NCBI GenBank assembly: GCA_964544065.1
Contig: CAZJBA010000003.1
Location: forward strand, 1,563 to 40,296
Length of the DNA: 38,734 nt
Origin: an uncultured Anaerolineales bacterium
Lineage (GTDB): Bacteria > Chloroflexota > Anaerolineae > Anaerolineales > UBA11858
Direction of reading: 5' to 3'
Position 1 is the stretch's first letter. Each line of letters begins with the position of its first letter. The notes beneath the pieces were generated by a model. That model worked only from the letters and a program-made list of their open reading frames with translations, did not search any database and was not told where the DNA came from. Made by a program: the position numbers and the translations under genes. This document shows positions 3,856 to 11,519 of the stretch, piece by piece.

Positions 3856-4527
3856 TCAGTCCCTACCCTGGCAAAAGACCAAAACACCATGGCCGAAAAC
3901 GAGTTCGTCGCCGTCGGTCAGCTTGTGCGTCACACTGAGTCGCTCCCCGTTGACGAGGGTGCCGTTGGCGCTGCCCAGATCGCTGAGCAGATAGCCCTTC
4001 CCTTGGCGGACGATCTCGGCATGGGGGCGGGAAACAGCCCGGTCTTGCAGGTTGATGTCCCACTTGTCGCCGCGTCCGGCCCGCCCGACGACCGTTTTCG
4101 CCTTGACCAGATCGAAGCGCGTGCCCCGGCCTGGCCCTGTGCGGATTTCCAGATACGGATGGGCGGCCAGATTGGGGACGATTTTTGTGGGACGGGATTC
4201 CGCCGGGGGCGCGGAGTCCTCTTCCGAGGGAGTCTGAACCTCGAAGCGGATGGTCACCGGCCCGATTTGAAGTTGATCCCCCTGGTGAAGCGGGCGCGTG
4301 CTCTCCAGCCGTTCGCCGTTGAGCAGGGTGCCGTTGTAGCTGCCCAAATCCGAAATTAGAAACGCGTCCCCGTCAAAATAGATCTCCGCATGTTGGCGGG
4401 AGACGCGCTCATCGAGAATGGTGATGTCACAATCCCTGCTCCGCCCAATCACAAAGAGGTCTTTTTCGAGGGAAAGACGATGTTCCTGGCCAGGCGGAAA
4501 TTGCCAGTGGAGGTGAGCGGCTGGCAT
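3856..4527 (-). CDS. Tandem FHA-domain protein (two forkhead-associated domains)
   Basis: Two copies of the FHA signature: FVIGRSRDCDITILDERVSRQHAEIYFDGDAFLISDLGSYNGTLLNGERL and VVGRAGRGDKWDINLQDRAVSRPHAEIVRQGKGYLLSDLGSANGTLVNGERL. The ATG at 4527 overlaps the TGA of the upstream gene (TGATG). Confidence 0.9.
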   Translation of the reverse strand: MPAAHLHWQFPPGQEHRLSLEKDLFVIGRSRDCDITILDERVSRQHAEIYFDGDAFLISDLGSYNGTLLNGERLESTRPLHQGDQLQIGPVTIRFEVQTPSEEDSAPPAESRPTKIVPNLAAHPYLEIRTGPGRGTRFDLVKAKTVVGRAGRGDKWDINLQDRAVSRPHAEIVRQGKGYLLSDLGSANGTLVNGERLSVTHKLTDGDELVFGHGVLVFCQGRD

Positions 4528-9779: not shown

Positions 9780-9804
9780 ACCGGGGACGATCTGAATGAG
9801 AATC

Positions 9805-9844
9805 AAAAAACGTGACAGCCAAAAAAACGACTGTCACGTTTTTA
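9805..9844. terminator. Bidirectional Rho-independent terminator between convergent genes
   Basis: AAAACGTGACAG (9807-9818) pairs with CTGTCACGTTTT (9831-9842) around a 12-nt loop. An A-run lies on one side and a T-run on the other. Confidence 0.8.
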
Positions 9845-9867
9845 CTTTGCTACAAGCGTTCAAAATC

Positions 9868-10611
9868 CTAGAGGAGCATCTCTTTCATTTTCTTTTCGTC
9901 CCAATTGACCACAATAGTGCCGTTGATGTCAAAGGTGGGGGTAACGAGCTTGCCATTGGCCCACTCGCGCACCTTTTCGGCCGCGTCCATGTGGCGAGTC
10001 ACGTCTACCTCGACGTACTCAATACCGTGATGCGCCAACCAGGCGCGCGCTTTTCGGCAATCGGGACACCACCGGTTGCAATACATCGTGATGTCGGCCT
10101 CTTCGGGTACCTCTTGCTTTTCTTGTTGCTCGATCGGTGTCAGTTCTACCTCCGGCTGGATGCGATCAATTTCAGCGAAAAGGACCTCATTGCTGGGTTG
10201 ATCATCAATATCGTGAATGTCGATGTATTGAATGATGCCCTCTTTGTCGATGATGAAGATCGCCCGCTCGGTGTATCCCTCCGAGCGAAGCACGCCGTAC
10301 AACTTAGCCACCTCGCCGTGGGGCCAGAAATCGCTCATCAGCGGGTAAGAAATCCCGCCGAGGCTATCGGCCCACGCTTGTAAGCAGGGAATATGATCTA
10401 CGCTGATGCCCAGAACCTGGACATTTCTTTCCGCAAACTTGGCATAGTCTGCCTCGTAAGACGGAATTTGGTTCGTTCAAACCGGAGTCCAGGCCAAGGG
10501 GAAAAATACCAGCACGGTGGTTTTTCCCTCCAGGTCGCTCAAAGTCACGTCCTTATCCAGGTGACTGGATAAGGTGAAATCTGGGGCTTTGTCGCCCACG
10601 TTTAGTGTCAT
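9868..10611 (-). CDS. AhpE-like 1-Cys peroxiredoxin fused to a glutaredoxin/NrdH-like domain; in-frame TGA (10477-10479) at the peroxidatic position, predicted selenocysteine
   Basis: The ORF track shows only the part after the TGA (9868..10338). Translating from ATG 10611 gives MTLNVGDKAPDFTLSSHLDKDVTLSDLEGKTTVLVFFPLAWTPV[TGA]TNQIPSYEADYAKFAERNVQVLGISVDHIPCLQAWADSLGGISYPLMSDFWPHG..., in frame with the listed ORF. The TGA is codon 45, where Prx proteins have the catalytic Cys (FFPLAFT..C). The C-terminal domain has MYCNRWCPDCRKA (CxxC). Confidence 0.75.
10429..10466 (-). promoter_or_regulatory. Candidate bacterial SECIS hairpin downstream of the in-frame UGA
   Basis: On the mRNA, the lower stem is UUCCGU (10466-10461) with GCGGAA (10434-10429). 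The upper stem is GGCA (10453-10450) with UGCC (10444-10441). The apical loop GACUA starts 28 nt after the UGA and begins with G. Hand-folded only. Confidence 0.4.
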
Positions 10612-10635
10612 AATAGTTACCTTTCTTGGCTTGAA

Positions 10636-10665
10636 TTTTTACCAATATCTTCAGTTTCTTCTCAA
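10636..10665 (-). promoter_or_regulatory. Putative promoter of the peroxiredoxin gene (TTGAGA - 18 nt - TGgTAAAAA)
   Basis: On the minus strand: TTGAGA (10665-10660), an 18-nt spacer, and extended -10 TGG TAAAAA (10644-10636). AAGAAAGG lies upstream of the ATG at 10611. The -35 lies inside the 22-nt repeat motif. Confidence 0.4.
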
Positions 10666-10746
10666 AGAAGCGAGGACGAACGCCGTTCCTGCGGGCAAAA
10701 CGAGCGGATAACAAATTCTGATGAAGGAACGGCGTTCGTTTTCTCC
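10655..10746. repeat. Copy B of the ~90-nt structured intergenic element
   Basis: Perfect 15-bp arms: 10676-10690 ACGAACGCCGTTCCT and 10725-10739 AGGAACGGCGTTCGT, followed by TTTTC. It lies between the rsmG stop (10774) and the peroxiredoxin start (10611), in the same orientation as copy A. Confidence 0.8.
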
Positions 10747-10773
10747 AAAATATTGAGATGATGCTATCTGCTT

Positions 10774-11484
10774 TTACAAAGGTCGTTTCGACGGAATCCC
10801 CACTCGGCGGGGATATTTGTCCGGCGTAGTCGCCACTTTTTCGATCACCACCAGGTAGCGTTGCTCCACCACGCCCGGCAACGTCACAGGGATCAAACGT
10901 TGCAAATGGCCTCCCAACATGCTGATGGCCTCTTCGGCCGAGTGGGCTTCGGCGGGGCCTGTTTCACCTTTCATGGCCAAGACGCCGCCGCCCACCCGCA
11001 CCAACGGGAGCAGATACTCCATCAGAATGGGCATTAGAGCCACGGATCGGGCAATGGCCCAATCAAATTGTTCTCGAAAAGCGCTGTCCTTGCCTACTTT
11101 TTCGACACGCTCCCGGACGATCTCAACCCCCTCCAGCGAGAGGGTTTCGGTGATGTGTCGGCAAAAGTCGACTTTCTTGGCGACCGATTCGACCAATGTC
11201 AGCCTGATTTGGGGGCATAAAATTTTCAGCGCCAGCCCGGGGAATCCGGCCCCGGTACCCACGTCCACAACATGTTGCATAGGTGTATCCCGCAAGGCCA
11301 GGTAGGCGCTGAGCGAGTCTAAAAAATGCTTGATGCGCACTTTTTCGGGATCGTCAATCGCGGTCAGGCTGTAGCGCTGATTCCATTTGCTTAACTCTTC
11401 GGCGTACACCCGCATGGCTGCCACTTGCTGATCGTTGAGATTGATGCCAGCCAGGGCTTTGAATTCGGGGATTAATTCCTTCAT
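10774..11484 (-). CDS. rsmG: 16S rRNA (guanine527-N7)-methyltransferase RsmG (GidB)
   Basis: MKELIPEFKALAG...NLTAI-type segment (RYSLTAIDDPEKVRIKHFLDSL). SAM motif VVDVGTGAGFPGLALKI. I use ATG 11484 rather than 11517. Confidence 0.9.
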   Translation of the reverse strand: MKELIPEFKALAGINLNDQQVAAMRVYAEELSKWNQRYSLTAIDDPEKVRIKHFLDSLSAYLALRDTPMQHVVDVGTGAGFPGLALKILCPQIRLTLVESVAKKVDFCRHITETLSLEGVEIVRERVEKVGKDSAFREQFDWAIARSVALMPILMEYLLPLVRVGGGVLAMKGETGPAEAHSAEEAISMLGGHLQRLIPVTLPGVVEQRYLVVIEKVATTPDKYPRRVGIPSKRPL

Positions 11485-11490
11485 GAGACA

Positions 11491-11519
11491 ATTATACTGG
11501 CTGGGGGGATGAATCACAA
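11491..11519 (-). promoter_or_regulatory. Sigma70-like promoter placed for a leaderless rsmG mRNA (TTGTGA - 17 - TATAAT - 6 nt - ATG)
   Basis: On the minus strand: -35 TTGTGA (11519-11514), a 17-nt spacer, -10 TATAAT (11496-11491). Then TGTCTC and the ATG at 11484. There is no Shine-Dalgarno sequence. Confidence 0.55.

Follow-up and report, generated by a model that had tools for sequence, protein, structure and literature searches.

A probable selenocysteine-containing AhpE-like peroxiredoxin fused to a glutaredoxin-like domain in an uncultured Anaerolineales bacterium

A 38,734-nt stretch of DNA from an uncultured Anaerolineales bacterium (GenBank assembly GCA_964544065.1, contig CAZJBA010000003.1, positions 1,563 to 40,296), termed here the window, carries on its minus strand a peroxiredoxin (Prx) gene that has an in-frame TGA at codon 45. 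The UGA is very probably recoded as selenocysteine (Sec), and the locus would then represent a genuine selenoprotein gene that has been mis-annotated. The codon occupies the position of the peroxidatic cysteine (Cys) of AhpE, is exchanged repeatedly with Cys codons in relatives, and is followed by a covarying hairpin that is present with TGA and degraded with Cys. The predicted protein joins an AhpE-like Prx domain to a C-terminal glutaredoxin-like domain.

Reading frame and selection

Translation of the minus strand from the ATG at 10611 to the TAG at 9868 yields 247 codons with a sole internal stop, the TGA at 10479..10477. The residues preceding this codon are VLVFFPLAWTPV, and those following it are TNQIPSYEADYAKF. 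The program-made list of open reading frames (ORFs) cuts the frame in two: an orphaned N-terminus of 44 amino acids (10477..10611) and an ORF of 156 amino acids (9868..10338). The latter is identical to the NCBI protein for the contig (P0018, 100% identity). An initial annotation of this DNA had proposed that the frame runs from the ATG into the 156-amino-acid ORF with one TGA interruption, and translation bears this out. The full-length Prx-redoxin architecture is common to thousands of homologues found in a protein database search.

The ratio of nonsynonymous to synonymous substitution rates (dN/dS) was obtained for the window gene against three related loci (L001, L004 and L010) in three codon segments. 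It is 0.11-0.13 upstream of the UGA (codons 2-44), 0.05-0.24 in codons 46-91, which are non-coding under the existing annotation, and 0.06-0.13 in codons 92-145. By these comparisons, purifying selection acts on one and the same frame before and after the UGA. The downstream starts chosen by gene callers are not conserved; the start in the window is M92, and the L004 and L006 ORFs each begin elsewhere. The stops of the 29 long, non-overlapping ORFs in the window are TGA in 11, TAG in nine and TAA in nine. As TGA ends 11 of these ORFs, the organism uses the standard code, and the earlier view that TGA is an ordinary stop here and that reassignment is not the explanation is upheld.

The TGA codon and its cysteine counterparts

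Residue 45 aligns with Cys45 of Mycobacterium tuberculosis AhpE (FFPLAFTGIC) in a phmmer search against the PDB, and the downstream LMSDFWPHG sequence aligns with LLSDFWPHG of AhpE. Pro38, Thr42, Sec or Cys at position 45 and Arg116 are invariant in 155 of 155 unique relatives, which comprise 118 TGA-form proteins (88 fusions and 30 single-domain proteins) and 37 Cys forms. The initial annotation had placed the TGA at the AhpE peroxidatic Cys and had described the LMSDFWPHG motif as AhpE-like. Both assignments agree with the alignments, and alignment with the Cys homologues likewise puts the U on the peroxidatic column.

The same TGA, at the same codon and with the same hairpin, is found in about 130 independent loci. 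These are contigs and genomes from various projects and phyla, isolates included. The nearest database proteins (75-100% identity) are all truncated, and full-length homologues have at most 66% identity. The DNA of the truncated matches shares the TGA codon in three JGI samples, the NCBI metagenome-assembled genome (MAG) GCA_964644835.1, a Logan assembly and the Ardenticatenia MAG GCA_003130875.1. Both flanks of the TGA are conserved in frame in each, and among five orthologue sequences from separate assemblies the TGA codon persists down to 64% identity.

Pairs of Sec and Cys forms, which the initial annotation had suggested as a check, exist in close relatives. Among 80 loci obtained by scanning one genome per GTDB species, the catalytic column is TGA in 49, isolates of Neobacillus and Schinkia azotoformans among them, and a Cys codon in 31 (TGC 17, TGT 14). 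A metagenome scan gave 80 loci with TGA in 74 and TGY in six, despite being seeded with an alignment of Cys forms. TGA is present in 18 of 18 close fusion loci (L007-L024). Among them are the isolate Ornatilinea apprima P3M-1 and MAGs under the names Anaerolinea, Leptolinea, Longilinea and Pelolinea; in Pelolinea submarina MO-CFX1 the catalytic codon is TGC. Single-domain TGA relatives are found in Pyrinomonadaceae, in Bacilli (Neobacillus, Schinkia azotoformans, Aneurinibacillus and Alkalihalobacillus), in Sulfobacillus and in other Chloroflexota. Four Cys lineages are nested among the Sec fusions, and the sample needs at least six Sec/Cys switches.

One narrow clade, with 79-90% identity to the protein P0011, contains both forms: loci L087-L089 have TGT or TGC without the hairpin, and loci L090-L092 have TGA with it. 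Judged from these sequences, Sec and Cys were exchanged here very recently, and the case could be used to date the speed of decay or origin of a selenocysteine insertion sequence (SECIS).

At the catalytic column of the best 120 protein clusters, C is found in 81 and W in 28. The W-bearing clusters were located on short metagenome contigs. In the one W case checked (P0002) the codon is TGA and the contig translated with code 11 fails to give the deposited protein; the W is therefore a mistranslation with code 4. Comparison of the W proteins with the fetched loci gave no exact match. The protein P0021, from a 953-nt single contig (L169, 65-808), has CGA (Arg) at the peroxidatic codon and an intact hairpin (-22 kcal/mol). 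This codon reflects either an error in the reads or inactivation of a Sec lineage by a T-to-C change in the very recent past. In P0106 the catalytic column holds Leu.

The SECIS-like hairpin

The RNA downstream of the UGA folds into a two-tier hairpin at about 10468..10427, with the paired part at 10466..10429. The stems UUCCG.C/G.CGGAA, AC/GU and GGCA/UGCC enclose an apical loop, GACUA (10449..10445), whose first nucleotide is the 28th past the UGA. The initial annotation had described such a hairpin, with a G-first loop at this distance. The fold is confirmed, and in addition it covaries and co-occurs strictly with UGA.

A family consensus from 23 fusion-clade sequences has 15 pairs in columns 12-53, counted from the U of the UGA. 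In these sequences 85.5% of cells are paired, versus 26-45% after a shift of the 3' partners by one to three columns. Compensatory two-sided changes are found in eight of the 15 pairs (34 cells), and in 500 column shuffles the covariation never rose to the observed value. The core also emerges from RNAalifold as an independent method.

The hairpin is present in all of 84 non-redundant Sec fusions, where the mean minimum free energy (MFE) is -18.1 kcal/mol (range -29.5 to -10.5). It is lost in all six Cys fusions, which have a mean MFE of -4.7 kcal/mol (range -7.1 to -2.3), and the two distributions do not overlap. Because the Cys lineages that lack the hairpin nest among Sec lineages, the hairpin is retained only alongside a UGA codon. 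Fusion and single-domain forms share a median distance of 27 nt from the UGA to the start of the apical loop. The apical loop of bacterial SECIS elements lies roughly 16-37 nt downstream of the UGA, the range used by bSECISearch, and the distance found here is within it.

The peroxiredoxin domain

Pfam domains were searched with the U replaced by C. An AhpC-TSA match covers residues 5-130 with an E value of 9e-43. Among solved structures, the M. tuberculosis AhpE entries are closest in sequence (phmmer against the PDB, E 6e-26) and rank ahead of all other Prx classes. For structural comparison, the AlphaFold model of a Cys homologue with 64% identity (P0001) was used in place of the window protein; it has a predicted local distance difference test score of 90.6 and a predicted template modelling (TM) score of 0.78. 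In a Foldseek search the model superposes best on AhpE, with a target-normalised TM score of 0.93 and a root-mean-square deviation of 1.4 Å over 153 residues. By sequence and by this homologue model, the Prx domain is AhpE-like. The NCBIfam model for PrxU (NF040737) gives 70.8 bits and its cutoff of 270 is not reached, which points to a different Prx subfamily. No NCBIfam model covers the whole fusion protein.

The fused redoxin domain and Cys76

The generic glutaredoxin Pfam model matches residues 174-233 (E 2e-12) and is the sole model that the fused domain passes. Three Cys residues of the motif YCxxWCPDC, C178, C182 and C185, are invariant in 95 of 95 fusion proteins. The presence of a C-terminal CPDC glutaredoxin-like domain, as first annotated, is thus supported by both the Pfam match and the invariant Cys residues. 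Residues 174-246 score below the NCBIfam cutoffs for YruB (GlrX_YruB; 59 versus 88.55), mycoredoxin (45.8 versus 89.5), Uxx-star (41 versus 66), NrdH (24.2 versus 85.75) and GRX_bact (31.8 versus 90), and the domain is also under the cutoff of the Grx3 model. The linker between the two domains is about 30 residues long and acidic, which suggests a mobile tethered reductant.

Within the Prx domain, 83 of 88 Sec fusions and seven of seven Cys fusions have a Cys at position 76. Single-domain relatives vary at this position, and AhpE has no Cys there. In the P0001 model Cys76 falls on the helix of residues 74-83, at the start of helix alpha3. Cys76 might act as the resolving Cys. Its conservation follows the presence of the fused redoxin, and this pattern among sequences hints at a role in a relay between the two domains.

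Proposed mechanism

We infer the actual insertion of Sec, the order of the relay, the role of Cys76, the substrate and the final electron donor as follows. The hairpin 8-50 nt past UGA45 would be a bacterial SECIS, bound by SelB carrying Sec-tRNA(Sec). Sec would be inserted at UGA45 in competition with release factor 2, giving a protein of 247 residues and not a peptide of 44. The selenolate of U45, in a site formed with Pro38, Thr42 and Arg116, would attack a hydroperoxide and become a selenenic acid. The selenenic acid would then be converted to a selenenylsulfide, either via Cys76 or directly with Cys182 of the tethered CPDC domain. Cys185 would close a disulfide within the redoxin domain, and an external reductase system would reduce that disulfide.

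It is about an even chance that the fusion represents an undescribed self-recycling selenoperoxidase, in which a Sec-AhpE site hands on its selenenic acid, possibly by way of Cys76, to a tethered CPDC redoxin, and of which the Sec form is predominant in Anaerolineae. If this is true, the group is among the more widely distributed selenoprotein clades of bacteria that annotation pipelines still overlook.

Sec decoding and alternative readings

Several observations weigh against recoding of UGA45 as Sec or against the relay proposed for it. The energy of the window hairpin alone is unexceptional (z-score -1.2); the significance of the hairpin comes from the comparative data. A G in the first two loop positions is found in only about 55% of the MFE folds of the family, although the GACUA loop of the window has it. 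Rfam gives no match in the whole window at the gathering threshold, and the hairpin region searched at E values up to 10 has two chance matches only; to our knowledge there is no curated bacterial SECIS model to test against. ARAGORN detects no tRNA-Sec in the window, which has no tRNA gene, or in 39 flanking loci. A tblastn search of 1.5 Mb of fetched DNA with Escherichia coli queries finds no SelA, SelB or SelD, a negative that speaks only against sel genes next to the Prx gene. From the window and its flanks, the Sec-decoding capacity of the host organism is presumed. The relay and the part proposed for Cys76 are put forward as possible; the structural model is that of a Cys homologue, and its linker is flexible.

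Indirect support for Sec decoding comes from a Thermoflexales (Chloroflexota) MAG (L066). Here a TGA-form AhpE-like Prx gene is found 6 kb from an FdhA-type gene, whose own TGA (4338-4340, plus strand) coincides with the canonical Sec codon (HQARI-U-HSPTV). Organisms that encode selenoproteins are also known from the literature in Chloroflexi, Acidobacteria and Bacillales. Genes of the FdhA/FdnG formate dehydrogenase type with the canonical TGA (HQAR[IVL]-U-HS..V) are also present in loci L063, L067, L074, L080, L081 and L083. In Syntrophales, Desulfobacterales and Thermodesulfovibrionia loci the FdhA gene has the TGA and the adjoining AhpE-like Prx has Cys; these probable Sec decoders thus keep Cys in this Prx. 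A separate, generic search of the window and the Anaerolineae flanks for other selenoprotein genes asked for TGA read-through together with a 3' hairpin and a Cys close by. Its 77 candidates all look like off-frame noise in GC-rich DNA and were rejected.

The UGA might instead be read as Cys, by an opal tRNA(Cys) of the selC*/SelB* type together with the SECIS or by mis-charging under selenium limitation, which would make the protein an ordinary Cys-Prx produced by recoding. The conserved UGA, the hairpin and the Cys homologues would look identical in that case, tRNA(Cys)/SelB* systems of this kind are on record for anaerobic bacteria, and the failure to find Sec machinery in the window or in the 1.5 Mb of flanks is compatible with it. 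The reported selC* tRNA(Cys) systems are, however, from Firmicutes, Thermodesulfobacteria, Nitrospirae and Proteobacteria and not from Chloroflexi. Repeated Sec/Cys exchange at a peroxidatic residue is also the textbook pattern of true selenoproteins, and the canonical FdhA Sec codon near a TGA-form Prx in the Thermoflexales genome again favors Sec. Reading as Cys is therefore considered very unlikely.

The remaining explanations are less probable still. Purifying selection on both flanks, unconserved downstream starts and the use of TGA as a stop together exclude, for practical purposes, a pseudogene, a sequencing error, a reassigned code and a pair of genes. Two products without recoding, a 44-residue peptide and a C-terminal protein re-initiated at the ATG at 10338, correspond to the output of gene callers, and Bacilli relatives do have a Met four codons past the UGA. 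Nevertheless, this start differs between the window and loci L004 and L006, the 46-codon stretch from the UGA to the annotated ATG is under in-frame purifying selection, and neither fragment contains a complete Prx fold or active site; the arrangement is very improbable. There is scarcely any likelihood that the TGA is an assembly or sequencing artefact of TGC or TGT, or that the gene is a pseudogene, with no full-length protein formed. The window comes from a single contig of a metagenome-type assembly, the gene is truncated in public annotation, and the CGA of P0021 demonstrates that point changes at this codon do occur; but an identical TGA is found in the roughly 130 independent loci, isolate genomes among them, and the covarying hairpin accompanies only TGA. 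Just as negligible is reassignment of UGA to Trp (code 4) or Gly (code 25) at position 45. The W at the catalytic column of 28 public protein clusters would be consistent with it, but W is a pipeline artefact where checked (P0002), TGA serves as the stop of 11 of 29 long ORFs, and Trp or Gly would abolish catalysis in a protein whose remaining active site is invariant.

Gene layout and surroundings

The coordinates of the predicted gene and its elements are listed in Table 1. The gene for RsmG, a GidB methyltransferase, is directly upstream on the same strand (10774..11517) with a gap of 162 nt (10612..10773). The rsmG-Prx adjacency is retained in the closest relatives (L001-L004), and the nearest of these also keep a convergent phosphomannomutase gene, in the order rsmG, Prx, phosphomannomutase.

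At 25 nt past the TAG, where the Prx gene and the phosphomannomutase gene converge, there is a perfect 16-bp hairpin with an A-run at one flank and a T-run at the other. Its MFE is -24.9 kcal/mol (z-score -4.84), and none of 200 shuffles folds as well. This is a probable bidirectional intrinsic terminator, and its position fits a single transcription unit that ends there, between the convergent genes. A scan for promoter and terminator consensus patterns gave nothing meaningful and overlooked this element, which was seen only by folding.

Table 1. Features of the predicted selenoprotein gene and its 3' flank (window coordinates)
Feature	Coordinates	Strand	Basis or description
Complete selenoprotein gene (predicted)	9868..10611	-	ATG 10611..10609, Sec-UGA at codon 45, TAG 9870..9868; AhpE-like Prx, acidic linker and glutaredoxin-like domain
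In-frame UGA, putative Sec 45 (peroxidatic, PxxxTxxU motif)	10477..10479	-	Alignment with AhpE Cys45; TGA or TGC/TGT in 155 unique relatives
SECIS-like hairpin, within the coding sequence	10427..10468	-	Fold and covariation; present with UGA, degraded in Cys forms
Peroxiredoxin (AhpC/TSA) domain, residues 5-130	10222..10599	-	Pfam E 9e-43; AhpE is top PDB relative
Cys76 codon, candidate resolving Cys	10384..10386	-	Conservation within fusions; start of helix alpha3
Glutaredoxin/NrdH/mycoredoxin-like thioredoxin-fold domain, residues 174-246	9874..10092	-	Pfam Glutaredoxin E 2e-12
Redox motif Y-C178-N-R-W-C182-P-D-C185	10057..10080	-	Three Cys invariant in 95 fusion proteins
Probable bidirectional intrinsic terminator	9806..9843		Hairpin with flanking A- and T-runs; folding and shuffles

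Mis-annotation in public records

None of 234 related protein clusters contains a U. The public records examined have a 44-amino-acid stub plus a truncated ORF, a Trp-containing protein made with code 4, or an antisense shadow ORF, and such mis-calls are found in MAGs and in Bacilli isolate genomes alike. The initial annotation had predicted that the gene would be mis-annotated as truncated, and truncated, split and Trp-containing versions are indeed what the public data display.

In the window, an antisense shadow ORF of 195 amino acids (9796..10383, plus strand) overlaps the Prx gene and has no Pfam match. On an identical 7.9-kb Logan contig (L167) the shadow ORF is called in place of the C-terminal part of the Prx. 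The single-domain forms of Bacilli (L025, L031, L033, L043 and L047-L050) read DWTPV-U-GAQMPSYEDD around the Sec codon. Among the 114 clusters nearest to the Bacilli form, 81 are ORFs that start at the Met four codons past the UGA (within P0137-P0250). The resulting product is a 'redoxin domain-containing protein' of 109-111 amino acids without an active site, found in Anaerobacillus, Caldalkalibacillus, Ammoniphilus and Neobacillus, with isolate and complete genomes included.

With a dedicated model, hundreds to thousands of records would be corrected, and Anaerolineae, Pyrinomonadaceae and several Bacilli would each gain a selenoprotein in their inventories. Peroxide defence appears to be one use of selenium in abundant Chloroflexota of sediment, sludge and soil. 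The fusion would provide a naturally occurring selenoperoxidase that carries its own reductant, and the close Sec/Cys pairs (L090-L092 and L087-L089) are suited to a direct test of Sec versus Cys in a Prx. Current understanding is not overturned by this gene, which is scientifically ordinary in kind.

Comparison with known systems

Selenocysteine-containing peroxiredoxins have been known since 2001 and are among the ten commonest bacterial selenoprotein families. The initial annotation had noted Sec-containing Prx proteins in some anaerobes, and the Prx (TxxU) family is well established, with 91 proteins in 78 organisms, 253 Global Ocean Sampling (GOS) reads and five inferred Cys-to-Sec events (PF00578/COG1225; Zhang/Gladyshev). 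The prototype, PrxU of Eubacterium acidaminophilum, is described as experimentally verified where Sohling et al. (2001) is cited in PMC13188914 and PMC9312934. The window gene belongs to this family because it has the same domain and the same Sec motif, which is the criterion used in the field. The Pfam domain, the position of Sec in PxxxTxxU and a SECIS immediately 3' of the UGA are shared, and as in the window clade, Cys homologues are abundant in the family and Cys and Sec are exchanged repeatedly. The window protein differs from PrxU in falling below the NF040737 cutoff, in its AhpE-like Prx domain and in its C-terminal glutaredoxin-like domain. The only Prx selenoprotein fusion found described is one with a PP2C phosphatase. 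In the literature searched, no description was found of an AhpE-like/redoxin Sec fusion, of an AhpE-type selenoprotein or of Sec machinery in Anaerolineae. The undescribed part appears to be the AhpE-like placement combined with the fused redoxin.

The closest solved relative is M. tuberculosis AhpE (Rv2238c; PDB 1XXU, 1XVW, 4X0X and 5ID2), a 1-Cys Prx with about 33% identity. FFPLA(F/W)T..C and LSDFWPHG are found in both proteins, and residue 45 is peroxidatic in both. AhpE, however, has Cys and a single domain, whereas the window protein is predicted to have Sec and is fused. AhpE also lacks the Cys76 of the fusion clade and reads PPPTHKIW in this region. The reductant of AhpE, mycoredoxin-1/mycothiol, involves a separate protein.

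Mycoredoxin, NrdH, YruB and Uxx-star proteins resemble the fused domain in having a small thioredoxin fold with an N-terminal CxxC, and they are the best NCBIfam matches of residues 174-246. Unlike these proteins, the window domain is fused and not free-standing, has Cys and not Sec, and scores below the cutoffs. It resembles the YruB, mycoredoxin and NrdH types more than classical glutaredoxin. The analogy to the AhpE-mycoredoxin pairing made in the initial annotation is reasonable as a hypothesis; the domain is below the mycoredoxin, NrdH and YruB cutoffs.

The hybrid Prx-glutaredoxin proteins of Haemophilus influenzae and relatives (PGdx/hyPrx5) consist of a Cys-based Prx of the Prx5 type and a glutathione-dependent glutaredoxin with a CPYC motif. 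The architecture is alike, with an N-terminal Prx, a C-terminal glutaredoxin fold with CxxC and the logic of a tethered reductant. The window protein differs in its AhpE-like Prx with putative Sec and in a redoxin that has CPDC and an extra invariant Cys178; no hybrid Prx5 structure is among the top Foldseek or phmmer PDB matches. The mobile tethered reductant suggested for the window protein follows the same logic as the AhpE-mycoredoxin pairing and the Prx5-glutaredoxin hybrids.

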